Part shown: positions 1,254-60,333 of the stretch, in pieces
How the letters are laid out: each line of letters starts with the position of its first letter
Numbering within the stretch: the first letter of the stretch is position 1
Assembly (NCBI GenBank): GCA_965261595.1
Contig: CBDHDG010000006.1
Location: forward strand, 1,408,001-1,472,000
Source: a bacterium
GTDB lineage: Bacteria; UBA8248; JACPRG01; G963555815
Direction: 5' to 3'
Length of the DNA stretch: 64,000 nt
Notes under the pieces: model-generated
What the model saw: the letters and a program-made list of their open reading frames with translations, nothing else
Databases searched by the model: none
Told to the model about the DNA's origin: nothing
Made by a program: the position numbers and the translations under genes

Positions 1254-1634
1254 ATGGGAAACATCTTGTGGGTGGGCCTGGGCGGATTCATCGGATCGAT
1301 TTTACGATATGCGGCGAGCGGATTCGTCAACTGGGTCGCTTTCGGAAGCATCTTCCCCTACGGGACCTTCATCGTCAACGTGGCGGGTTGTCTCGCCATC
1401 GGGCTCTTGGCGGGAATCGCGGAAACCCGGGGCGTCTTTTCCGAACAAACCAAGATGTTTCTTTTCATCGGGCTGATCGGCGGTTTTACGACGTTCTCGA
1501 CCTTCGCGTTCGAATCCCTTCAACTGCTCAAGGGATCTCAGGGCATGCTGGCGATGCTCAACCTGGTCTTTCAGTCCGTGCTCGGCTTGGGGGGCGTCTG
1601 GGCGGGTCAGACGATTTCGCGGCTCGGTTCCTAG
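1254..1634 (+). CDS. crcB: Fluoride efflux channel Fluc/CrcB
   Basis: GGFIGSILRY, FPYGTFIVNVAG, GLIGGFTTFSTF motifs; RBS GAAGGGAG. Confidence 0.95.
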   Translation: MGNILWVGLGGFIGSILRYAASGFVNWVAFGSIFPYGTFIVNVAGCLAIGLLAGIAETRGVFSEQTKMFLFIGLIGGFTTFSTFAFESLQLLKGSQGMLAMLNLVFQSVLGLGGVWAGQTISRLGS

Positions 1635-1694
1635 CCGACTGCCCGGGGCCGGCGGAGGGAGAGGGAGGGGAAGGGGCGTCCGGCGATCAGCGGC

Positions 1695-3070
1695 CTAATG
1701 CGATTGGCTTGCTTCGAGGTCCGGCCCCGTTTCCGATTCTCCGCTCCATGAACTGCGGGCCAGGACGGGAGAGTCGGGCGACTCCAATTCGGCCACCCGG
1801 CGGGCCGCGGCCGCCTGTTCCGCGTAAACCGGATCGAGGGGCGCCGGCTGGATGGGCCGGCGGGAATGGGCGGTCCGGTTCTCCGTGCCGGTCCCGGCAG
1901 GTTTCGGGATGGCCCAATTCGGGATGAAAAAGGACAGCACGCTCGTCACGACGCTTCCGGCGGTCTCGATGGTCTTGCGGAACGGCGTGTTCCGAACCCG
2001 AACCCAGTTGGAGTCCTGAATGCCCGTCACGGGAGAGTTCAGGTTGAACGCCAGGGGCAAGGCCAGGCCCTGATCGGCCGAGCCGGGCGAAAGCACCCGG
2101 GACCACGCGTCCCCGTAGGGAAGGATATCCATCACGTAGCTCAAGACCACCTGAGCGTTGTCGAACGTCTTCGTAACAAGCCGCTCCCCCTTCGGAAGGC
2201 TCCCGATGGTGGCGTCGGCAACCGCTTCCACCAGGTTCAGAACGCCCAAAACCCCGTCTTTCAACATATGCCCCACGGCCCGAGCGCCCCCGCCACCAGG
2301 TTGTTCACCAGGGCCTCGCCGAAGACCTTCTTGAAGAAGTGCTTGGTGCGCCCCCAGACCCCGACGGGGGCGGCTTCCCCTTCAGGGACATACGCACCGA
2401 ATGAGAGACCGCTCGCCATGTTCCGGAAAAACTTCCCGACGGTCCCCAACAGGCCGCTGTGGCGGCCGGACCCGATGCTCCCGTCGGCGGCCCGGTACTT
2501 GTATTCGGCCCCGGCGATAAAATTCTCGATCATGTTGATAAAGTTGCTGCCGGCATCCTTGAGATCCTTGCCGACCCGCTGGATGAACCCGGACGGCCCG
2601 TCCGGCTTGACGATGACATTCTTCGTCCGGTCCGTGTGATAGTGATCCCCCCCGGGATTGGCCAGAAGCTGGTCTTCTTTATACCGAGCGATCTGCTCCA
2701 TCAAACCCAGGGGGATTTTCGGTCCGACCATCGGCGGGGGCGGTCTCAGGTCCTGATTCAGGGATTCCCGAACGGCATGCTCAACCCCCCGGTCTATGTT
2801 GAAGCCCCGAACATCGGCCCTGGCGAGCTGGGTCCCGAAACTTGGAGCGGTGATGATCGCCTTGGAGATCATGGCCGAATCTCCGCCCTTCACACGGCCC
2901 AATTCCACAGCCAGGGCCTGCGAGAAGTGCGCCCGCGCGATCCTCGCGGCGGCCGACCGCTCCTGTCCCGGAACCAGCCCCGCACGCAAGTCGGAGAAGG
3001 CATCCTTCTTCCGGCCGAGAAGATAATCGGCTTGCGTCAGATTGGGGTCAATGCTGACCGGACCCGGCAT
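1695..3070 (-). CDS. Hypothetical protein, apparently one gene split by a frameshift near 2270
   Basis: ORFs 2261..3070 and 1695..2276 overlap in different frames and both look coding; no family recognised. Confidence 0.5.
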
Positions 3071-3525
3071 TTATTTCCCCCTTATTCCGGCTCACGCTCC
3101 CTCACCAAGCGTCCAAAACCACCCGGTTTCCCTTGGCGGATGGGGAATCGGGCCGCATGACGCTTCGTCGGGAGGCGCTCCCCGCCCAGGTTCCCCCCGA
3201 CTCTTCTGTAGAAAAATGCACATTCGGCGCCACGTCGAAGGAGGGCGTATTCGGGGGATGAACACTTCCGCCTCGAAACCTCCGGGTCGTCCGCAAGGAG
3301 GCGTCCGCACTCCTTCAGCATCGCGCCGCGCCCCGGGGGGAATCGATGGCCGACCCGAGCCCTTCGCACGCCGGGCGGACGGGTGGACAAAGCCCGAAGT
3401 GGCCGCAGGCTTCGACGCCATAGGCCTCTGGATCTCCGCGGCCGTGAAGGGGCCGCTGGGTGACGGAGAGACACACATGAAACAGGATTCCCTCGACAAA
3501 CGAAACGGTCTTCTTCAAGAAAACC

Positions 3526-4968
3526 GAGCCTGTCCCATTCATAGTTGAAGGTTGAGAAAAAGAGGTGGCGGTTCACTCCTGCCGACTCGGTTAGAATCGG
3601 GTTGGCAAACATTCAAAGAGGAGGAACCGCCATGAGTGAAGCTTACCAGATCATCGAGAAGAAAGAGACCCAAAGGTTGGCCGCCTTTGTGGCGGAGCAC
3701 GGGCAGGCGTTTTTTCCTCTGGTGTCGCTGGTGGAGCAGTCCCAACTGGCGGTGGAGGACCTGATGGACGTCATGGGCCGGGCGGGCCTGGAGGCCGTGC
3801 TTTTGCTGTCGGCCAAGGGCTTGACGGGCGCGCCGCATCCAGGCAAGCGGGGTGGCGAGGTCCGCCGGCACGGCAGCCAGGGGGGCCGGGTGACCCTGAA
3901 GGGGCGCAAGCTGAAGGTGAGAAAGCCGCGGCTTCGCCGCCGGGGCCAGGGTCGGGGCGGGGAGGTGGAGGTGCCGGCGTATGCGGCCATGCAGGCCGAC
4001 CCCGGGCTGGGGGAGCGGATGCTGGATTTGCTGATGCGAGGGGTCTCGACGCGGAACTACGCGGCCGTTCTTCCCGAGCTGGCCGAGACGGTGGGGGTGT
4101 CGAAGTCGGCCGTGAGCCGGGAGAGCATCGAGGCGGCCGAGGCGAAGCTGCGGCGTCTTTGTGAGCGGCGTTTTGACGACATCGACCTCCTCATCCTCTA
4201 CCTGGACGGTCTGCGCTTCGGCGCGCATCACGTCATCGTGGCCGTTGGGGTGGACACACGGGGCCAAAAGCACGTTCTGGGCCTGAGGTCGGGCGCCACC
4301 GAGAACGCCACGGTCGTGACGGCGCTTCTTGAGGAGTTGGTGGAGCGCGGCGTGCGGCCCGGGCGGCGTCGGCTTTTCGTCATCGACGGCTCGAGGGTGC
4401 TTCGTGCGGCGATTGACCGGGTGTACGGGGACGACAATCCGGTGCAGCGGTGCCGCAACCACAAGGTGAAGAACGTGATGGACCACCTGCCCGAGGAGTT
4501 GAAGGACCCGGTGAAGGCGACGATGAAGGCGGCCTGGCGGCTGGCGCCGAAGGAGGGGATTGCCCGTCTGCGCAAGCAGGCCCGGTGGCTTTAGATCGAG
4601 CATCCGGACGCGGCCGCCAGCCTTTTGGAGGGTCTGGAGGAGATCTTCACCGTCAACCGCTTGGCTCTTCCGCCCGGCCTTCGGCGCTGCCTGGTGAGCA
4701 CGAACCTGATCGAGAGTCCCTGTTCGGGGGTGCGGATGCGCACCCGGCGCGTCGGCCGCTGGCGGGACGGGGCGATGGTGAAAAGGTGGGCCGCTTCCGC
4801 CTTCCTCGCCACCGAGAAGAACTTCCGTCGCCTGGACGGCTACCGGGACCTGTGGATCCTGAAGGCCGTTCTGGACGAGCCCCGCTTTGACACCCGAGAG
4901 GAGGTCGCATAAGGTGAACCACACACGGACCGCCGCCTCAAACCTTCAACTGAATTCGGGACACCCTC
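3526..4968 (+). mobile_element. IS256-family insertion sequence, copy 1 (1443 bp)
   Basis: Ends GAGCCTGTCCC / GGGACACCCTC; 8-bp TSD AGAAAACC at 3518-3525 and 4969-4976; near-identical to 56231..57673. Confidence 0.95.
3632..4912 (+). pseudogene. IS256-family transposase with in-frame TAG at 4592-4594
   Basis: GVSTR, LYLDG, VIDG, QRCRNHK motifs; frame continues after the TAG (IEHPDAAASLLEGLEE...STNLIES). Confidence 0.9.
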
Positions 4969-5203
4969 AGAAAACCGGCTCACTCATTTCATCAGAGTCG
5001 CTGGATCGCATCCGGTTGACATCCCCGGACCCGTCCGCCTATCTTGGAGATCCAGCCGCTGATTCACCTCATTTCCATCCGGTCAAGGGCGAAGTGGGCG
5101 CCGGTCGCACCCCTTTTTTCGGCCGGGGCGGCGGGTTGCTTATGGAGATCGGCGGCGCGTCCGAGCGTTGCCGAGCCGATGAATGAAAAAGGAGAAACGT
5201 GAG

Positions 5204-5659
5204 ATGGTCATCAGAGCGGGTGAGCAAGCCCCGGCATTCACCGCCAAAGCAACGGGGGACCGGGAGATTTCCCTTTCGGATTACGCGGGCAAGAAGAACG
5301 TCATGCTGGCGTTCTTTCCCTTCGTCTTCAGCCCGGTCTGCTCCGAGCAGATTCCGGCTTATTCGGAAAACGCCCAAAGGTTCGCCGACCTCGACACTGA
5401 CGTCCTGGCCGTCAGCGTGGACAGCCCGTGGTCCCAGGGGGCCTGGGCGGAGCAGTACGGCATCCGGGCGCCCGTCCTGAGCGACTTCAGCAAGAAAATC
5501 GCGGGTGACTACGGCGTGATGCACGAGATGGGGATGTCCCAGCGGGCCATCGTCATCATCGACAAGAACGGCCGGGTGGCCTACGCGCACGTCCAGGAAG
5601 ACATCCGGACAATTCCCAGCCCGGACGAGATCTTCGCCGAGCTTGAAAAGCTGAAATAG
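5204..5659 (+). CDS. Peroxiredoxin (AhpE/AhpC-TSA family)
   Basis: FFPFVFSPVC peroxidatic motif, SVDS, RAIVIIDKNG. Confidence 0.9.
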   Translation: MVIRAGEQAPAFTAKATGDREISLSDYAGKKNVMLAFFPFVFSPVCSEQIPAYSENAQRFADLDTDVLAVSVDSPWSQGAWAEQYGIRAPVLSDFSKKIAGDYGVMHEMGMSQRAIVIIDKNGRVAYAHVQEDIRTIPSPDEIFAELEKLK

Positions 5660-5673
5660 AACGGAGGAACGAC

Positions 5674-6126
5674 TTGTCCGGCGAAGACCCCCAAGAGAAA
5701 CCCCCGAAGCGGCCGCCCTTTGTCGAGACCCTCCGCCCGGGGATGGAAGGCCGCGTCGAGCACGTTGTCGAGGAGCGCCACCTGGCCGACTCTCTCGGAA
5801 ACAAGGGCGCCAAGGTCCTGGCGACGCCCATCATCATCGGCTGGCTGGAAGACGTATCGTCCACGATCGTTCGACCCCACCTGCCTGAGAGGGTGCTGAG
5901 CGTGGGGACCCTGGTGAACGTCCGCCACTTGTCGGCTGCCCTGGCGGGATTCACCGTCGTCTTCCGGAGCCGCCTGCGGGAGGTGGACGGCCGGCGGCTT
6001 GTGTTCGATGTCGAGGCCCACGACGGTGTGGAGAAGGTGGCCGAGGGCGTCCACGAGCGGTTCATCGTGGATGAAGAGAAGTTCCTCGCCAAAGCGGCGA
6101 AGAAGCGGCCCGAAAGCAGGGAATAA
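5674..6126 (+). CDS. Hot-dog thioesterase, fluoroacetyl-CoA thioesterase (FlK)-like
   Basis: VLATP..LE..VGT.VNVRHL pattern (Thr/Glu/His triad), C-terminal GVHERFIVD. Confidence 0.8.
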   Translation: MSGEDPQEKPPKRPPFVETLRPGMEGRVEHVVEERHLADSLGNKGAKVLATPIIIGWLEDVSSTIVRPHLPERVLSVGTLVNVRHLSAALAGFTVVFRSRLREVDGRRLVFDVEAHDGVEKVAEGVHERFIVDEEKFLAKAAKKRPESRE

Positions 6127-6559: not shown

Positions 6560-6669
6560 GTCGGCGCCGCTTGCCCCGCCGCGAAGGAATCCGTACATTG
6601 AAGAAGAGAAGGCAACGCGGCGATTCGGCGTCGCCGCCGGGAATGAGAACGAGGAGAAGGCCCGCCCTG

Positions 6670-7083
6670 ATGATTCCATGGTCGAGACGGTCCCTTTGCT
6701 TCGCCCTGCTGGGCCTTGCGGTTGCCCTTGGGGGAGGGGGATGCGGACTTTTCGGAAAAAAGAAGCCCAAGGAGACTGACGCCGAGTCCAAGGCGAAGGT
6801 CGCCATGAAGGTGGTCATCACGGCCCGCCGCTACGCCTTCCGGCCAAACATCATCCGCGTCAAACAAGGGGTCCCGCTGGAGATTTCGCTGAAAAGCGTG
6901 GACGTCCCCCACGGCTTCGGCATCCGGCGTCCGGGCCAAACCCGGAACTTCGGCGCGTTCGAGCCGGGCAAACCCCTTCGCGTCCTGATCCGGACGAACA
7001 AGAAAGAGGTCATCGAGTTCTTCAGCACGGTGTATAGCGGGGTGGATTACTACAAGATGAAGGGGAAGATCATTGTCGAGTGA
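6670..7083 (+). CDS. Cupredoxin-fold (COX2/EfeO-like) lipoprotein
   Basis: Lipobox-like GGC; 'F.PNIIRVKQG..V.HGF..F.STVYSG....MKGKIIVE'; the usual Cu-ligand cysteines are replaced by Ser. Confidence 0.7.
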   Translation: MIPWSRRSLCFALLGLAVALGGGGCGLFGKKKPKETDAESKAKVAMKVVITARRYAFRPNIIRVKQGVPLEISLKSVDVPHGFGIRRPGQTRNFGAFEPGKPLRVLIRTNKKEVIEFFSTVYSGVDYYKMKGKIIVE

Positions 7084-7717
7084 GGCGGACACCCTGGATT
7101 CCTCGCACCGGGCAAAGGACTCCGCTTTCCCGCAAGCCGCCCCGCCGCCGCCGCGGGCCACGCGGCGCGAGCGTCGGTTGCTGCGTCTGTTCGCGGCCGT
7201 TCCGCTGGTCTTCCTGCTGATCCTTGCCGGCTACGCCTGGATCGGCCGGGTCTCGGCCCCCCCCGCGCCCAAGGCGCACCCCCTCCGCGCCGGCGACAAA
7301 GCCCCCGCGTTCAAGTTTTCCGACTTGAGGGGGCGGACCGTTTCCCTCGAAGACTTCCGGGGCCGCGTCGTCTTTCTGAACATTTGGGCGACCTGGTGCC
7401 CGACGTGCACCTGGGAGATGCCTTCCATGGAAGCCCTCCACAGGCGATATCGCGACAAGGGGTTGGCCATGGTGGCGGTCAGCATCGACGCCCTGGGAAA
7501 GGAAATCGTCGTTCCCTACATGAAGAAGCTGAGACTGACCTTCGGCTCTCTTCTCGACCCGCGGGGGACCATCAAGGGGCTCTACCGGATCACGGGCGTG
7601 CCCGAGACCTTCATCATCGACCGGCAGGGAAAGATCCTCCGGAAAATCATCGGACCCCGCCAGTGGATGGACCCGGAAATGGTGAACTTCATGGAGATCG
7701 CCCTGCAGTCTTCCTGA
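7073..7717 (+). CDS. TlpA/ResA-like membrane-anchored thiol-disulfide oxidoreductase
   Basis: TM helix, NIWATWCPTC, GVPETFIIDRQG. Confidence 0.92.
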   Translation: MSSEADTLDSSHRAKDSAFPQAAPPPPRATRRERRLLRLFAAVPLVFLLILAGYAWIGRVSAPPAPKAHPLRAGDKAPAFKFSDLRGRTVSLEDFRGRVVFLNIWATWCPTCTWEMPSMEALHRRYRDKGLAMVAVSIDALGKEIVVPYMKKLRLTFGSLLDPRGTIKGLYRITGVPETFIIDRQGKILRKIIGPRQWMDPEMVNFMEIALQSS

Positions 7718-7938
7718 CGCCGGGGAAGCCCGGCGCAACGGGCGGCGCGTCCGCTGACCGCCAGTGTCCGGCGCGGCTTTCGGGCGGCCCCATCGATCCT
7801 TGGGGACAACCTTTTCCCGAAACGGCGTTGAAATCCCCCCCCCCCCCTCGATCGCCGGGGTCCCCGCGGCGCTCCTCAAGGCGGCGTCGCGACAGATGAC
7901 CGGCCCCGATCCGCACACCTCTCAACCGGAGTGACGGC

Positions 7939-8562
7939 ATGAGCCAAGACCGCCTGGAGATCCTGGTCTATCACGATTATTGCTGACCCTGGTGCTGCAA
8001 TTCCGCCGTTCGGCTGGAACAGTTGAAGGAGAAATTCGGAGACCGCATCGACATTCAGCATCGGTGCTTCCTCCTGCGGGCCGAGCCGGACCCGACCGTT
8101 GTCTTCAACGACTACCGCCGCGGGCATTGGGAGCGGGCGGACACCCAGGGGGACGGCGGCACGTTCCGCGCCTGGCACAGCGACGCGCCCTTTCCCAGCC
8201 ACAGCCTCCCCTCGGCCGAGGCCTCCAAGTGCGCCGCCCTTCAAGGGGAAGAGGCGTTCCACCGATACCATTTCGCCCTCCTCAAGGCCATCTTCGAGGA
8301 CAGCCGCAACATCAGCGATCCCGACGTGCTGATCCGGATTGCCGAAGAGCAGGGCCTTGACGTTTCCCGCTTCAAAGAAAACCTGTTGAGCGGCTCACAA
8401 AAAGACAAGGTCCTGCGGGAACACATGGACGGGATCGAGCAATTCAGCGTCCAGGCCATTCCAACCGTCATCTTCGGGAGGAAGCAGGCCGTCGTGGGCG
8501 GCGTTCCGCGGGAGGAGTACGAGAAGGCCATCGAACTTATCCACGCGCCGTCGGGGACATAG
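7939..8562 (+). CDS. DsbA/FrnE-like oxidoreductase, predicted selenoprotein (Sec at TGA 7984-7986)
   Basis: ATG 7939 in frame: MSQDRLEILVYHDYC-U-PWCC; TGA sits at the first Cys of the CPWC motif; cis-Pro AIPT; hairpin downstream. Confidence 0.85.
8001..8019 (+). promoter_or_regulatory. Candidate bacterial SECIS hairpin
   Basis: TTCC-GCC-GTTC-GGC-T-GGAA stem-loop with bulged U and G-starting loop, 14 nt after UGA. Confidence 0.6.
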
Positions 8563-8576
8563 AGGGAGGCGCCGCC

Positions 8577-9551
8577 TTGCCCGGACTTTGCGACATCCGG
8601 GGAGTCCGGGTCGGCCATGCCGAAGACCGGGACGCCCTCACCGGCTGCACGGTGATCCTTTTCGACGGGGGGGCCGTCGCGGGACTCGACCTGCGCGGGT
8701 CCGCCACCGGAACCCGCCAGATGGACGCCCTGCGTCCTCAGCACCTGGTCGGCCGGATCGACGCCGTCTTCTTCGCGGGCGGGAGCGCCTTCGGACTCGA
8801 CGCCGCCGCCGGCGTCATGACCTACCTGGAAAAGAAGGGGGTCGGCTTCCCGACCGCGCGAACCACGGTGCCCATCGTCCCCGCCGCCATCATTTACGAC
8901 CTGGGCATCGGCCCCGGCGACGTGCGGCCGACGCCCGGCATGGCGCGGCGGGCCTGCAAGGCCGCCGACGGGCCGGGGGGGCGGGCACCCGCGGAGGGCG
9001 CCGTCGGCGCGGGAATCGGGGCGAGCGTGGGAAAGCTCTACGGACTCGCCCGGGCGATGAAGGGCGGGGTCGGGACGTGGTCCCTTCGGTCGCCGCGAGG
9101 CGCGACGGTGGGCGCGCTGGCGGTGGTCAACGCTTTCGGAGACGTGATTTGCGCCCGGACGGGAAAGATCCTCGCGGGCACGCGGAAGGATGAAGACTCT
9201 CTGGAGCCGGCGGACACAGCCAAGCGGATGCGCGAGGGCGAGAGTCGGTCCGGCTTCGACGCGGAGAGCACGACCCTTTGCTGCGTGGCGACCGACGCCC
9301 GTTTGGACCGGGTCGGCGCCGAGAAACTGGCCCAGCTCGCGTCCAACGGTCTGGCGCGGACGCTTCGCCCGGCGTTCAGCACACTCGACGGCGACCTGAT
9401 CATCGCCGCCTCAACAGGGGATCTGGAAGAAGACCTGAATGTCCTGGGCCTCCTGGCGGAGGAAGCGGCGGCGACCGCCGTCAACCGGGCCGTGACCGAG
9501 GCCGAAAGCCTGGGCGGCCTGCCGACGGCGAAAGACCTGGACCGGGCGTGA
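8577..9551 (+). CDS. P1/DmpA-family (S58) peptidase
   Basis: VRVGHA..TGCTVI, GGSAFGL, VPIVPAAIIYDL, EGAVGAG, VVNAFGD, DGD motifs. Confidence 0.9.
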   Translation: MPGLCDIRGVRVGHAEDRDALTGCTVILFDGGAVAGLDLRGSATGTRQMDALRPQHLVGRIDAVFFAGGSAFGLDAAAGVMTYLEKKGVGFPTARTTVPIVPAAIIYDLGIGPGDVRPTPGMARRACKAADGPGGRAPAEGAVGAGIGASVGKLYGLARAMKGGVGTWSLRSPRGATVGALAVVNAFGDVICARTGKILAGTRKDEDSLEPADTAKRMREGESRSGFDAESTTLCCVATDARLDRVGAEKLAQLASNGLARTLRPAFSTLDGDLIIAASTGDLEEDLNVLGLLAEEAAATAVNRAVTEAESLGGLPTAKDLDRA

Positions 9552-9670
9552 TCGCCGATCCCTACAAAAATCCCCCGGGGTCGGGCCTCACCACCGGATC
9601 AACGGTCCTCGCTTTCACTTCCGAACACAAAAGGAAGCGAAAGCAGGCCCTAGCGCACGCACCAATAGGC

Positions 9671-10261
9671 CTAAAGACTTACCCGCCCCCCCCCCGCTGA
9701 AGCCGCCCTTTGCAACAGGGCCAACACGGATCCGGTGGGCTGATTCCGGAGGTCCAGGACGACCCCGCGTCCGCGCGCGACGCCCGCGCGACGTGAGAGG
9801 CCCCCGATCTGAAGCCGATAATATTGACTGTAGGCCCTTCCGTTGTAGACCAGGATGTAGGTTCCCCGGCCGCTCCGGAGATTTCGCGGCAGCCTCACGC
9901 GAAGCTGAGTCCCCTGCGCGTCTCCCGAAACGGCGCGGGCGAAGCGGTAACCAAAAATTTCCGTCCGGCTTCTGACACCGCTCTTTCTGAATTTCGCCCT
10001 CCGGCCAGTCGCGATCGGAACCCGGATGCGGTTCAGGCGCGCGTACGGATTGAAGTTCCGCCCCAGGATGGTGATGATCGAACCCGAGGGCGCCGGCAGG
10101 GGGGTGACGCCCGTAATGACGGGCTTGATGACCGGCGCATACCGCCGCGGCCGGGCCCGCCGCACGTCTCCGCGTTCTGGGCGCAACGGGGCGCACTGCC
10201 GGGGATTCGGTCCTCGCCAAATAGAAAGGCTGAATCTTCGTCTTTCCGCGTTCGGATCCAT
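9671..10261 (-). CDS. Basic IPT/TIG-domain-like protein (start uncertain)
   Basis: PVITGVTP.PAPSGSIITILGRNF is a typical IPT/TIG N-terminal motif. Confidence 0.55.
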   Translation of the reverse strand: MDPNAERRRFSLSIWRGPNPRQCAPLRPERGDVRRARPRRYAPVIKPVITGVTPLPAPSGSIITILGRNFNPYARLNRIRVPIATGRRAKFRKSGVRSRTEIFGYRFARAVSGDAQGTQLRVRLPRNLRSGRGTYILVYNGRAYSQYYRLQIGGLSRRAGVARGRGVVLDLRNQPTGSVLALLQRAASAGGGRVSL

Positions 10262-11357: not shown

Positions 11358-11768
11358 TCAAGATGCGTTTGTGTAGTCTTCTTCCGAAACCGCCTCCATC
11401 CACTCGGTCGCCCCGCCCATCGAGTGGGCGATGTGGTCCATTCCCTCTCCGGGCGACGCCCCGTGCCAGTGCTTCTCATCCGGCGGGATGTAAACGACGT
11501 CTTCAGGACAGATGACCTTGGCCTTCTTCCCGTTTTCCTTCTCTTCCCAGGTCTGAACCCACCCGGTCCCCTTCACAACGTGCAGGACCTGCCCGGCCGG
11601 GTGCGTGTGCCAGTGCGTCCGCGCCCTCGGCTCAAACGAAACAGTGACCACCCGCACCAGGATTTTCTCGTCGATACTCACGAGCGGGGTCATTCCCACC
11701 CGACCCGTGAAATGCTCCCTCTCCTCCGGGACCGCGCGCGGGGCGTCCTCTTTCGGAACAATTTTCAT
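11358..11768 (-). CDS. Cupin domain protein
   Basis: FTGRV, FEPRARTHWHTHPAGQ, HWHGA, WMEAVSEEDY. Confidence 0.9.
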   Translation of the reverse strand: MKIVPKEDAPRAVPEEREHFTGRVGMTPLVSIDEKILVRVVTVSFEPRARTHWHTHPAGQVLHVVKGTGWVQTWEEKENGKKAKVICPEDVVYIPPDEKHWHGASPGEGMDHIAHSMGGATEWMEAVSEEDYTNAS

Positions 11769-11828
11769 ATTCCCATCCTTATTGCGAGCACCAAACCGAT
11801 TCGCATACAAACAGCTCTGGCGACCGCC

Positions 11829-12620
11829 TCAGAAAGCCGACTTGATCATGCCTCCGTCCGCGTAGACCGATTGGCCGGTAATGTAACCCGCCTGATCAGA
11901 GGCCAGGAAGACAACGATGGGGGCCAACTCTTCGGGCTCGGCGAATCGCCCGAGAGGGACGGCCTTGGAGATCCGGCCGAAGAATTCCTCTTCGGTGATC
12001 CCCTCCTTCTCGCAGGCGGCCTCCGCTCGGGCCCGCCACCGGTCGTTCATCAACCGGCCAGGATTCACACAGTTGACCCGGACGCCTTTGGGCGCCAGCT
12101 CATTGGACAGGCTCTTCGAGAAGTTATTCATTGCCGCCTTGGCCGTATTGGACACGATAGCATTTTCGCTGGGCTGCAAGCCCGAGACCGAGCCGATGTT
12201 GATGATGCTCCCGCCCCCGGCCTCGATCATATGGGGCACGACGGACCGGCAGCACCGGATAACCCCCCGGAGATTGACCGCCAAGTTCGCGTCCCAGTCT
12301 TCCTCCGGAAGATCGAGGAAGGCTCCCAGGTGAGACTGCCCCGCGTTGTTGACGAGGACGTGGATGCGGCCCAGATGTCTCACCGTCTCCTCCGCCATTC
12401 GCTCCACGTCCTCCGCGACGGTCACGTCCGCTGTGATGGGGAGCGGTTCAACGCCGGTCGCATCGGCCATTGCTCGAGCCGCTTCGGCCAGCCCATCGGC
12501 CCGGCGGGCGGCGATGGCGACACGCGCGCCCTCCACCACGAAGGCCTTGGAAATGGCGAACCCGAGATTCTCGCTGCCTCCAACGACCAGGACGCCCCGG
12601 TCCTTCAGGCCAAGATCCAA
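11829..12620 (-). CDS. Short-chain dehydrogenase/reductase (SDR)
   Basis: TTG start MDLGLKDR; GGSENLG, NNAG, SNTAK (atypical YxxxK), ADGG. Confidence 0.9.
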   Translation of the reverse strand: MDLGLKDRGVLVVGGSENLGFAISKAFVVEGARVAIAARRADGLAEAARAMADATGVEPLPITADVTVAEDVERMAEETVRHLGRIHVLVNNAGQSHLGAFLDLPEEDWDANLAVNLRGVIRCCRSVVPHMIEAGGGSIINIGSVSGLQPSENAIVSNTAKAAMNNFSKSLSNELAPKGVRVNCVNPGRLMNDRWRARAEAACEKEGITEEEFFGRISKAVPLGRFAEPEELAPIVVFLASDQAGYITGQSVYADGGMIKSAF

Positions 12621-15875: not shown

Positions 15876-17060
15876 TCACTCCAACCCCGAATCCCTCACC
15901 ATGCCCAGCAGCCGCTCGCCAGCGTCATGAAGCGTCTCGTCCTTCTTGGAGAACGTGAACCGGATAAAATCCCTCCCCCCCTTGCCCTTTCCCCCCATTC
16001 CCGGCGAGTGATAGAAGCTGCTCCCGGGAACCGTCGCCACGCCGTGCTCGCGGACGAGGCGCATGGCGAAGTCCACGTCGTCCGAAGCCCCGAAACCGGA
16101 AACGTCCGCCATGATGTAATAGGCCCCTTGCGGCTCGATGAACGGGATCTCCGCGCGCTGAAGGTAACCCTGCAACAACTCCCGTTTGGCCTGGTACATC
16201 GCCGCGAGGTCCGCGTAATACGCGTCCGGCAGGGAAAGGGCCGCCGCCGCGGCTTCCTGGAGGGGCGCGGGCGCGCCGACGGTCAGGAAATCGTGGACCT
16301 TCCGGACGCCAGCCGTCACTTCCTCGGGGGCGAGGACGTACCCCACCCTCCAGCCGGTCACGCTGTACGTCTTGGAGAGGCTGTTGATCGTAATGGTCCG
16401 CTCCCGCATCCCATCCAGCGAGGCCAGGCTGACGTGCGGCCGGCCGTCGAACACGATGTGCTCATAAACCTCGTCGGTGACGGCGAAGATGTCGAACTCG
16501 ACGCAAAGGTCCCGAATGCTCTCCAGCTCGGCCCGGGTGAAGACGTGTCCCGTGGGGTTGTGGGGGGTGTTGAGGATGACGGCCTTCGTCGCCGGGCCGA
16601 CGGCGCCGCGGAGCTCCTCGGGGTCGAACGTGAAATCGGGCGGCCTGAGGGGGACAAACCGGGGGACCGAGCCGCTGAGGAAGGTGTCGGGGCCGTAGTT
16701 CTCGTAGAATGGCTCGAAGATCACCACCTCCTCGCCCGGGTTGAGGATCGCCATGAGGGTGGCGATCATCCCTTCGGTGGCCCCGCAAACAACAGTGATC
16801 TCCGTCTCGGGGTCGGGCTCGAACCCGTTGAAACGGGCGGTCTTGCGAGCGATCGCCTTGCGGATGTTGGGGCTGCCCCACGTGATGGCGTACTGATTCC
16901 AGCCGTCGGTGATGGCCCGGCGGGCCGCCTCCTTGATCTCCTCCGGCCCGTCGAAATCGGGAAACCCCTGGGCCAGGTTAACGCCGCCGTATCGCATACA
17001 CTCCCGGGTCATGCCCCGGATGACGGACTCGGTGAACCGCCCGACCCTTTGAGAGAGCAT
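15876..17060 (-). CDS. Class I/II PLP aminotransferase
   Basis: NLAQGFPD, NTPHNPTG, DEVY, SLSKTYSVTGWRVG. Confidence 0.93.
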   Translation of the reverse strand: MLSQRVGRFTESVIRGMTRECMRYGGVNLAQGFPDFDGPEEIKEAARRAITDGWNQYAITWGSPNIRKAIARKTARFNGFEPDPETEITVVCGATEGMIATLMAILNPGEEVVIFEPFYENYGPDTFLSGSVPRFVPLRPPDFTFDPEELRGAVGPATKAVILNTPHNPTGHVFTRAELESIRDLCVEFDIFAVTDEVYEHIVFDGRPHVSLASLDGMRERTITINSLSKTYSVTGWRVGYVLAPEEVTAGVRKVHDFLTVGAPAPLQEAAAAALSLPDAYYADLAAMYQAKRELLQGYLQRAEIPFIEPQGAYYIMADVSGFGASDDVDFAMRLVREHGVATVPGSSFYHSPGMGGKGKGGRDFIRFTFSKKDETLHDAGERLLGMVRDSGLE

Positions 17061-52762: not shown

Positions 52763-54443
52763 CCGGAATTTCCCATATCAAATCCGGACAGGCCTGTACC
52801 GACCCCTCGTTGCTATTTAACTCAATTAGACCCCTCTCTCCCGGACCTGTCAATCCCATTTCAGGTGCCTGAAACCCTAATCGGAGCGTTATCCACCATT
52901 GAAAATCATGCCACCCCTCCGGGTAGGCGAGCCTTCCCAGCAGGTCATCTGGAAGGGACAGAACATTCACCATTTTGTCCTCGGGTGGACTGCGCTGAGA
53001 GCGGTTAGACAGGTACGGGCCGCAATCGGTTGATTCGGTCCAGGATGATGGCGAACTCTTCCCTGGATACCGCTACTTCGGCCAATTGAAAGATGATCTG
53101 CCGGGCGTGCCGCACAATCCTCCCCCCCATTTTGATGAGCTTGACCTGGAGGCTTCGGAGCGACCAGTGCTTGAGCCCCCTGGGCAAGGCTAGCCTGCGC
53201 AGGAAATTGCCCAGGTTGTACGCCAGGACGAAGAGAAGGAGCCGCACCTGGTTGCACACGAACCGGTGACAGGAAAGGCGTGTCCAGTTCAGGGCGTACT
53301 TGCCGTCCTTGATCCATTGCTCGGCTGTGCCTCGCTGGTTGTAGAAGTGCACGACCCCCTCGGGTCGAGCCGTCAGGTTCGTGACAATGAATCCGACGCG
53401 AGGGAAGAGTTCGCCTGAGTGCCATTCCACCTTCGCCACGACCCGCCGGGAACGGTCCCAGCTTCCAGCCTGATACCGGAAGTCGTAATAGAAGATGATG
53501 GGTCTCTTGGGCGGGCGACCGACCGGGCGGGTGAGGAGGAAGTCGATCTCTCGCTGCACCACGTCGTTGGCGGGAAGGCGGATGGCGTAAAGGAAGCTGT
53601 GCGCTTCCAGGCACTCATAGACCTCCGGGCGCGCAAAGGCGGCATCGGCTCGGAAGTAACGGCGAACACCCGCCCGCTCATACCGGGCCGCGATGGGCGA
53701 AAGCAACTCGCGCCAGCCATCGGCGCTGTGCACGTTCCCCGGCCGCAACATCGCCCCCTCGCAGTCCCCGAACTGGTTGAAGCAGAATAAGGGATGGTAG
53801 CAGAGGGAACCGAAGTGACCGTTGTAGGCCGTACCTTCCTGCTCCCCATGGACGGGGCTTTCCGAGCTGTCCATGTCCAGGATGATTCGCTGATGGGGTG
53901 AGTGTGCCATGGTCCGGTCCACCCACTCCCGGTTCAGCTCGCTCCGGCCCCTTGAGATTCTCCTCCCTGGTGAGAACCTCGGTCTCGAACCGGCTCAGGG
54001 TGTTGGCGCCCGCCGCCTGCTTCTCAAGCGCTCGGCGGCCGACCACGGCTTGCATCGCGGGGTCCTGGGCCAACCGCTCGGCATCGTTGGTGTCTTCATA
54101 CCCTGCCAAGCGGCTATAGACCGACTGGCGCAATAGCGGCGCCAACTCATGCTGGATGTTCCGGCCATGACGGATCTCTTGCAATTGCACTGGCGCTCTC
54201 ACCGTCAAACCCAGCGCATCATCCAGCTCCCGGCAGGCCAGCAATCCCGCATCCGAAGTGATTCTGGTTCCGTGAAACTCAAGCCTCAGCCGACGGTCAA
54301 AACGGATCTTCAAAGCCCCCTTCTTCGCTTCACCCATTGGGTCCCCTCGCAAGATGATGGCAGGGAGAGGCCAACACCTTGATCTTACACGAGAAAACGG
54401 CATTCGGTCCGACAAAACTTATGATCCATATGGGAAATGCGGG
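52763..54443 (-). mobile_element. IS1380-family element; transposase 53005..54337 frameshifted near 53945
   Basis: IRs CCCGCATTTCCCATAT / CCGGAATTTCCCATAT; TSDAGLL, LDMDSS, YNQRGTAEQWIK; no matching TSD. Confidence 0.92.
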
Positions 54444-58638: not shown

Positions 58639-60333
58639 CCGGGATTTCCCAGATGACCACTCTTAGCCATCCTGCGGTCCTCCTGTGTCATCAAAGTACC
58701 CCATTTTACTACAGATTCAGGGTCTCTTTGCAGAACCATCTGCTCAATCGAGGGGCAACGGCCGTCCTAAAGCCGCAATCCCTTGAAAACCCAGCTATAC
58801 CGGCACACTCAGGGGAGTTCGGCACAGACTGATCCCCCGTCTCCACCACGTCACTAAGCTTCCGGGCCATCTGCTCCGTCATCCGGTATCTGGTACGGGA
58901 GGCGGTAACCACAACCGTCGAATTCGTTCAAGGATTGCCCTGAACAGTTGACGCGGCACGGCCACCTCGGCCATCTGGAAGGTGGTGTGCCGGGCGTGGG
59001 TGACCACCTTGGCCCCAATCTTAATCAGCTTCTCGCGTAACGTCGTCAGCGACCAGTGCTTCACCGCTCTGGGCAACGCCAGCCGCCGCAGGAAGTTTGC
59101 CAGGTTGTACGCCAAGGCAAATAGTTGCAAGCGAACCTGGTTCTCTTCAAAGCCGTGGCAGGACAGGCGCGTCCAGTTCAGGGCGTACTTGCCCTCCTTG
59201 ATCCACTGCTCCGCCGTCCCACGCTGGTTGTAGAACCTCACGACGTTCTCTTCCCGCCAGTGCAGGTTGGTCACGATGAAGCTGACTCTTGGAAACAACT
59301 CGCCCTGGTGCCACTCGACCGCCACCACCACCCGGCGAGGCTTCTCCCAACTAGCCGCCTGATAGGAGACGCTGTGGTAGAAGATAATGGGCCTTTTGGG
59401 CGGTCGGCCAACCGGCCGGGTCAGAAGGCATTCGATGTCCCTGTACAAGATGGCGTTGGCCGGAAGCCGAATCGCATAGGAGTAGCCCTCCGCCTCAAGG
59501 TATCGGTACACCTCCGGCTTGGCAAATGCCGCGTCGCCTCGAAAAAACCGACAGACCTTCGCATCCCGGTAGCGAGCTACCACCGGCTCCAATACAGACC
59601 ACCAGTCATCAGCGCTGTGGACCTTGCCGTTGCGCAACAGCGCCCGCTCCAGATCGCCAAACTGGTTGAAGCAAAACAGTGGGTGATAGCAGGTGCAGCC
59701 GAAGTGGCCGTTGTAGGAAGAGCCTTCCTGCTCACCGTGGGTCGGGCTGACCGAACTGTCCATGTCCAGGATCAGCTTGCGAATCGGCTTGCGTTTGCGG
59801 ACACGATCCACCAACACACCGGGCAGACCGCTCAGCGCCTTGAGGGGTTAAGGGGCCGGGTGAGGGTCTGCGTCTCGAATCGGCTCATCTGGCTGGTGGA
59901 GGCAGCGGTGTGATACTTCGCTCGCCCCCCAACCACCTGACGCATGGCGGGATCGACACAGAGCCGCTCGGCATCATTGGTGTCTTTATATCCTGCCAGG
60001 CGGCTGTAGACCGACTGGCGCACCAAAGCGGTGAGGCTGTGCCGGGTGTTCCCGCCCGTCCGTGAATCGGACAGAAACCCCTCGGCCGCCTTCGTCAGCC
60101 CCAACACCTCATCCAGTTCACGATAGGCAAGCAAACCGGCGTCACTCGTAACCTTTGCTCCGTGAAACTCCAGCCTGAGCCGACCGTCGAATTGGAGCCT
60201 CAACGGCCTCTTTTTCGCTTCACCCATCGGGTCCCCTCGCAAGATGATGGCAGGGAGAGGACAACACCTTGATTTTACACGAGAAAACGGCCTTCGGGGC
60301 GTTAAAAATTATCATCCATATGGGAAATGCGGG
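58639..60333 (-). mobile_element. IS1380-family element; transposase 58879..60227 frameshifted near 59845
   Basis: IRs CCCGCATTTCCCATAT / CCGGGATTTCCCAGAT; transposase homologous to the 53005..54337 copy. Confidence 0.92.

Follow-up and report, generated by a model that had tools for sequence, protein, structure and literature searches.

The stretch of bacterial DNA analyzed here (64,000 nucleotides, hereafter the window) very likely contains a real, misannotated gene for a selenoprotein of the DsbA/FrnE type at positions 7939-8562, in which selenocysteine (Sec) would take the place of a catalytic cysteine at residue 16. This reading had been put forward in a preliminary description of the same DNA. 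It is supported by the pairing of TGA with Cys codons at one and the same column of related loci (25 versus 7), by the invariance of columns 16 and 19, by the use of TGA as a normal stop codon in the window, and by synonymous constraint 3' of the TGA. The main value of the result lies in annotation, because standard gene callers treat the UGA as the end of the frame and leave an inactive C-terminal stub of 179 residues. The corrected gene model would add one selenoprotein to the redox inventory of the organism. The features of the gene, hereafter called the Sec-DsbA gene, are the following:

7928-7931, plus strand: GGAG ribosome-binding site, 7 nt 5' of the ATG (direct read).
7939-8562, plus strand: full coding sequence of the putative DsbA/FrnE-like selenoprotein, 207 residues with U at residue 16 (translation with TGA as U; Pfam; tblastn; AlphaFold2).
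7981-7998, plus strand: active-site codons Cys15-Sec16-Pro17-Trp18-Cys19-Cys20 (sequence and translation).
7984-7986, plus strand: in-frame UGA, probably read as selenocysteine (TGA in the same column of 25 of 32 loci, a Cys codon in seven).
8001-8019, plus strand: core of a SECIS-like hairpin with 7 bp, a bulged U8015, and the loop GUUC at 8008-8011 (minimum free energy fold).
8461-8463, plus strand: codon of Pro175 in the 'cis-Pro' loop of the thioredoxin fold, A-I-P-T (conservation in the 43-row and nine-row alignments).
8560-8562, plus strand: stop codon TAG (translation).

ORF calling with translation table 11 reports only an ORF from 8023 to 8562, with a TTG start and 179 aa. The preliminary description had placed an upstream ATG in frame with this ORF, and translation of the frame confirmed it. 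With TGA translated as U, the ATG at 7939-7941 opens a frame of 207 codons with one in-frame TGA at 7984-7986. Reading through this codon is the sole non-standard step between 7939 and 8562, and it places U16 in the context Y-H-D-Y-C-U-P-W-C-C. The further claim that one TGA coincides with the first Cys of the CPWC motif of the DsbA family also held: in the sequence match to FrnE of Deinococcus radiodurans (5cnw/5cp1), which is the top match among solved structures (E 1.3e-7), U16 is aligned opposite the first Cys of the CPWC.

We then turned to related loci. One scan of species-representative genomes, based on an alignment from which the distant protein P0011 had been left out, returned 32 loci (L001-L032). 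A TGA was read in the DNA at the column of U16 in 25 of them (L001-L024 and L026), which cover a range of 34-94% protein identity. The other seven carry a Cys codon at this position, TGC in L025 (Dehalococcoidia) and Cys codons in L027-L032. In tblastn (residues 1-201), the match of 24 loci to the query begins at residue 1 and continues through the TGA, and the 15 codons ahead of it are therefore conserved as protein. Columns 16 and 19 are the sole invariant ones in an alignment of 43 rows, which comprises the TGA forms and full-length Cys forms. An alignment to Cys homologues had been proposed at the outset as a check on the selenoprotein reading. When it was run, the column carried a TGA or Cys throughout. 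An exhaustive HMMER search (E ≤ 0.001) returned 2741 representatives; of the best 150 of these 2741, 38 span the N-terminus, with a CxxC motif in 32 and CPWC in 24 of the 38.

The proteins deposited in databases tell the same story from the other side. A word-index search gave ten proteins, and the seven best (49-94% identity) begin beyond the motif, with a query coverage of 84-86%, which is the signature of genes cut at the UGA. Moreover, 35 of the best 150 of the 2741 representatives, including P0012, P0017, and P0024, begin with M/V-R-L right past the motif (selected because the match starts within residues 1-4 of the protein and residues 22-32 of the query). Three of these 35 correspond to or resemble loci in which the TGA was seen (L004, L026, and clade 2); for the remaining ones we infer truncation at a UGA. 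Such entries suggest that Sec forms of the DsbA-like family have widely entered databases without their N-terminus. As a separate observation, the relatives include three proteins of 663-974 aa (P0033, P0041, P0046) with three to five tandem DSBA domains.

The late start annotated for all seven closest database proteins would also fit a TGA that is a true stop, be it by nonsense mutation, by sequencing error, or because the gene is short, so that the product would be the 179-residue ORF 8023-8562 or nothing. Such a stop matches the table-11 ORF calling as well, and the 64-kb window contains no Sec machinery. However, it leaves unexplained why 25 loci, with protein identities of 34-94%, share the TGA at this column and why the protein sequence encoded by the 15 preceding codons is conserved. 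Strand 1, most of helix 1 (residues 6-36 in the AlphaFold2 model), and the whole active site would be missing from the short product. Furthermore, a GGAG precedes ATG 7939, whereas nothing comparable is found ahead of TTG 8023. We regard a true stop as extremely improbable.

Decoding of the UGA without selenium, by lineage-wide or local recoding as Trp or Gly, known from variant codes, or as Cys by near-cognate reading, would likewise keep the frame open, as would any code in which TGA is a sense codon. But TGA is the commonest stop in the 64-kb window, where it ends 17 of the 32 Pfam-supported ORFs. Therefore, TGA is not globally recoded and the code is standard. In addition, the residue found in all seven non-TGA loci is Cys and never Trp or Gly, in line with the CxxC of 32 of the 38 N-terminus-spanning representatives (among the best 150 of 2741), and the synonymous constraint 3' of the UGA described below fits a cis-acting insertion element. 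The genome of one relative is also listed among Sec-pathway species in the available part of PMC13326102. Recoding without selenium has, in our view, only the slightest chance of being correct, and selenocysteine remains the preferred meaning of this UGA.

In a quick tree of the 43 rows, 11 of 12 TGA forms group in one clade (SH-aLRT 95). The Acidimicrobiales TGA form, L026, was placed among Cys forms, so that at least two changes are needed on this tree. The tree's own table may still allow a single origin of the TGA form.

A bacterial insertion element is expected just behind the UGA, and the preliminary description had reported a bulged hairpin there, 14 nt past the TGA. The hairpin was recovered at 8001-8019, starting 14 nt after the A of the UGA, with its 5' arm at 8001-8007 and its 3' arm at 8012-8019. 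It forms the core of the minimum free energy structure (-15.9 kcal/mol) predicted for the 50 nt that follow the UGA, a structure that extends to 7988-8029. With its small loop beginning with G and its one-base 3' bulge, the hairpin resembles the canonical SECIS printed in PMC13326102, as far as that source could be consulted; 12.6% of the entries in the database described there have no canonical element. The stability of the hairpin is unremarkable: 27 of 200 shuffled sequences fold equally well (z = -1.26), and 7.1% of the 32-nt windows along the gene reach the stability of the hairpin window. Across nine sequences the z-scores range from -1.99 to +0.82, and the corresponding window of the 19 clade-2 loci ranks at 30-81% among the windows of its gene. 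Because of these z-scores and within-gene ranks, we rejected hairpin stability as evidence for a SECIS element.

A consensus SECIS across all clades was not found either. RNAalifold detected no shared hairpin in clade 2 (4 pairs only, -1.18 kcal/mol), and imposing the window hairpin on all 20 distinct sequences paired 63.6% of the cells, compared with 69.3% at a slide of -1. Therefore, there is no common register between the clades. Every TGA form that was folded singly shows a hairpin around the invariant G25-U26, in a register that differs by clade, and L025, the sole close Cys form, shows no hairpin around G25-U26. Within the window's clade (a small sample of five sequences), 35 of 35 cells are paired as compared with 20-63% in slid controls, the imposed structure being derived from one of these five sequences. 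The hairpin of L004 contains one compensatory change from G-C to A-U and one change from U-A to U-G.

Codons 22-26 (Ser, Ala, Val, Arg, Leu), all with four- to six-fold degeneracy, agree in 19, 19, 19, 18, and 19 of the 19 clade-2 loci, respectively. Among 150 sliding windows in this clade, synonymous entropy is lowest at codons 21-28, with 0.25 bits versus 0.72 bits for codons 29-190. This minimum indicates that the RNA itself is under selection where a bacterial SECIS would be expected. Taken together, the evidence for a SECIS is mixed: place, shape, pairing within the clade, and synonymous constraint speak for the hairpin, while its stability is at chance level and it has no register shared across clades. 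In the proposed mechanism, a SelB-type factor would recognize the hairpin at 8001-8019 and deliver Sec-tRNA to the UGA.

No selA, selB, selD, or tRNA-Sec gene was found in the 64-kb window: ARAGORN and Rfam detected a tRNA-Arg only, and Pfam searches of 86 window ORFs gave no SelA, SelB, or SelD domain. No tRNA-Sec was found in the flanks of 26 related loci either, nor in the eight loci scanned with Rfam. A 92-nt 'tRNA-???' with a two-base anticodon was called by ARAGORN in L002, a locus of 73% identity (16827-16918, plus strand); at the gathering threshold, Rfam identified it as neither a tRNA nor a tRNA-Sec. In the part of PMC13326102 available, a database that covers only Sec-pathway species credits the isolate to which L024 is assigned with 54 selenoprotein genes, and two further Nitrospinota-labelled genomes with 50 and 48. 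The lineage is already noted for large selenoproteomes. In the Acidimicrobiales locus L026, a gene for SelO (a protein adenylyltransferase; 6832-8343, minus strand) precedes the Sec-DsbA gene by about 1.7 kb, and a sigma-70/anti-sigma pair follows the SelO gene.

The 207-residue translation scores 61.4 bits with Pfam DSBA (cut-off 25.6); Thioredoxin_5 (50.8 bits) and Thioredoxin_4 (33.4 bits) also exceed their Pfam cut-offs. No NCBIfam model reached its cut-off, the best scoring 27 bits against 190. An AlphaFold2 model built from the 43-row alignment (pLDDT 95.5, pTM 0.91) has a strand at residues 6-12 that leads straight into a helix at residues 17-36, with the UxxC at the N-terminus of helix 1. 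A Foldseek search with this model returned FrnE (5cnw) first, with E 2.7e-11 and a TM score of 0.79-0.81, followed by YjbH and DsbM. The predicted structure is a thioredoxin fold with an inserted helical domain, nearest to FrnE. P175 belongs to the 'nearly invariant (90% or more)' set of the 43-row alignment and is invariant in the nine-row alignment. By inspection, no signal peptide was seen, and since strand 1 already begins at residue 6 there is no room for one.

The C-terminal CxxxxC motif by which D. radiodurans FrnE is regenerated is absent from the 207-residue translation, because the protein stops at residue 207 and its last Cys is C98. This excludes the D. radiodurans FrnE subtype, not the FrnE-type family; according to the consulted portion of PMC8945050, many FrnE homologues have the motif and some lack it. 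From its fold and motif, the product is most likely a cytoplasmic disulfide reductase/isomerase of the FrnE type, with Sec16 as the nucleophile and Cys19 as the resolving residue. In such an enzyme, Sec16 at the N-terminus of helix 1 would attack a substrate disulfide or another oxidized thiol, the mixed selenenylsulfide would be resolved by Cys19, and the oxidized Se-S center would be re-reduced by thioredoxin or a low-molecular-weight thiol system.

The preliminary description had called the C-U-P-W-C-C site atypical, and comparison with the 32 Cys-form representatives (among the best 150 of 2741) bears this out. Position -1 is Leu in 26 of them, Ile in three, Val in two, Tyr in one, and Cys in none (0/32). 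Position +4 is Tyr in 26, Phe in three, and Cys, Trp, or His in one each (Cys in 1/32). This rarity would favor a selenoprotein in which the extra cysteines are functional, either through a selenenylsulfide between Cys15 and Sec or with Cys15 and Cys20 as alternative resolving residues, so that the site would form a multi-chalcogen center. Cys15 (TGC) is indeed kept in five of five members of the window's clade, that is, in the window and L001-L004 only, down to 67% identity. However, position 15 is Leu (20) or Ile (1) in the other 21 TGA-bearing loci, and Cys20 occurs in the window alone: all 25 other TGA-bearing loci have Tyr, Phe, or Trp, including L001 (94% identity), which has TAC where the window has TGC at codon 20. 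Therefore, neither residue is needed for the function of the family. With Cys15 confined to the five sequences of one subclade and Cys20 to the window, any special chemistry is speculation, and we judge a multi-chalcogen center unlikely, the plain UxxC pair of Sec16 and Cys19 being preferred. A role for Cys15/Cys20 within the window's subclade is possible. A full-text literature search for a CUxxC or CUPWC site gave no relevant publication.

The preliminary description had also assigned the gene to a redox cluster with Prx, TlpA, and a cupredoxin. The genes next to the Sec-DsbA gene are the following, the first four lying upstream of it:

5183-5659: gene for a peroxiredoxin (Prx).
5674-6126: gene for an FlK-type thioesterase.
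6571-7083: weakly cupredoxin-like ORF that reads as a lipoprotein (NCBIfam E 5e-5 and 1e-4, far below the cut-off).
7073-7717: gene for a TlpA/ResA-like protein with WCPTC that reads as membrane-anchored.
8577-9551, plus strand: gene for an S58-family peptidase (Pfam Peptidase_S58, E 2e-39) with its own GGGAGG site.

These redox neighbours are real, as described, but they recur in the closest four loci only (L001-L004) and do not represent a conserved partner. The TlpA-like neighbour reads as membrane-anchored and the cupredoxin-like one as a lipoprotein, whereas the Sec-DsbA protein appears to have no leader. The S58 gene behaves differently. In the window it begins 14 nt past the stop of the Sec-DsbA gene, and 23 of the 25 TGA-bearing loci (L001-L021, L023, and L024) have an S58 gene directly 3' in the same orientation, 18-163 nt beyond the matched region. 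It is missing at L022, L026, and the Cys-form locus L025. The pairing holds across clades of 42-50% identity. With S58 genes in 23 of 25 loci and the redox genes in L001-L004 only, the conserved partner is the peptidase and not the redox cluster. The two genes are probably co-transcribed. This pairing was not found in the available portions of published accounts of DsbA-like selenoproteins.

Beyond annotation, two modest leads emerge, the pairing with an S58 peptidase and the subclade with a vicinal Cys-Sec. Both could be combined in a more far-reaching proposal, namely that in this Nitrospinota-type lineage the Sec-DsbA protein acts with the S58 N-terminal-nucleophile peptidase as a dedicated system of two enzymes and that, in addition, the site of the window's subclade is a vicinal Cys-Sec (C-U-P-W-C) with chemistry beyond a plain UxxC. 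We consider this joint proposal unlikely. If it were true, one possible role would be the reductive opening and subsequent cleavage of a disulfide-bearing peptide.

Two GC3-based read-through scans of the window, with NCBIfam searches of seven candidates, gave no further convincing selenoprotein gene. A peptide resembling a Sec-peroxiredoxin, FFPFSFSSQV-U (11494-11865, plus strand, TGA at 11554), is most likely spurious, because it is antisense to a minus-strand ORF (11358-11810) that is cupin-like by reading. Among the read-through candidates, only an IS1380 transposase with an interrupting TGA matched a family (NCBIfam), and this candidate was also discarded. The window carries two copies of this IS1380-family (DDE_Tnp_1_4) transposase on the minus strand, at 53005-54198 and 58879-60242. 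In one copy, an in-frame TGA separates the N-terminal from the main part, and the other is split into ORFs 59832-60242 and 58879-59817.

The closest locus, L001, differs from the window in several respects outside the gene. About 3.7 kb between the CrcB and Prx genes (1391-5127) are extra in the window, with flanks of 92-95% nucleotide identity, and this segment includes an ORF for a Mutator-family transposase (3545-4594). L001 has a PAP2-family gene (8971-9942) between the TlpA-like and DsbA genes, which is lacking in the window, L003, and L004. The corresponding junction in the window (7826-7880) contains a run of 13 C at 7835-7847.

Among proteins of solved structure, FrnE of D. radiodurans (5cnw), a cytoplasmic disulfide oxidoreductase/isomerase, resembles the window protein in its CPWC-type motif at helix 1 and probably in the lack of a signal peptide. 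It differs by an identity of about 21%, by Cys instead of Sec at the start of the motif, and by a length of 260 residues versus 207 here. FrnE is regenerated by its C-terminal CxxxxC tail, according to the part of PMC8945050 consulted, whereas the window protein has no such tail. DsbM of Pseudomonas aeruginosa (5hfg), a cytosolic reductase, has the same fold (TM 0.74), as does the Spx adaptor YjbH (6ghb; TM 0.81). Both are cytosolic Cys proteins, and YjbH is a protease adaptor rather than an enzyme. A vicinal Cys-Sec pair is present in mammalian thioredoxin reductase, as G-C-U-G in the C-terminal tail. Its likeness to residues 15-16 is in sequence only; the fold differs and so does the position, which is the start of helix 1 here.

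The closest known system is the DsbA-like selenoprotein itself. In the sections available of the respective papers, the Sargasso Sea metagenome yielded nine DsbA-like (COG2761) UXXC sequences with predicted SECIS elements, which were described in 2005 as a new family of selenoproteins (PMC1088965), a study of 2006 gives DsbA-like selenoproteins for several complete genomes (PMC1794560), and a 2026 review has the entry 'DsbA-like protein form 1, PF01323, UxxC' (PMC13188914). As far as these sources describe it, form 1 (PMC1088965, PMC13188914) shares with the window protein the DSBA domain, Sec (predicted here) as the first residue of UxxC, widespread Cys homologues, and a stem-loop after the UGA. 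The window copy differs by C-U-P-W-C-C and by the S58 pairing; the likeness is drawn via Pfam PF01323, not via a score against COG2761. On the evidence of these passages, the replacement of the nucleophilic Cys by Sec in DsbA-like proteins has been known from the literature since 2005, and the gene in the window is a further member of this family.
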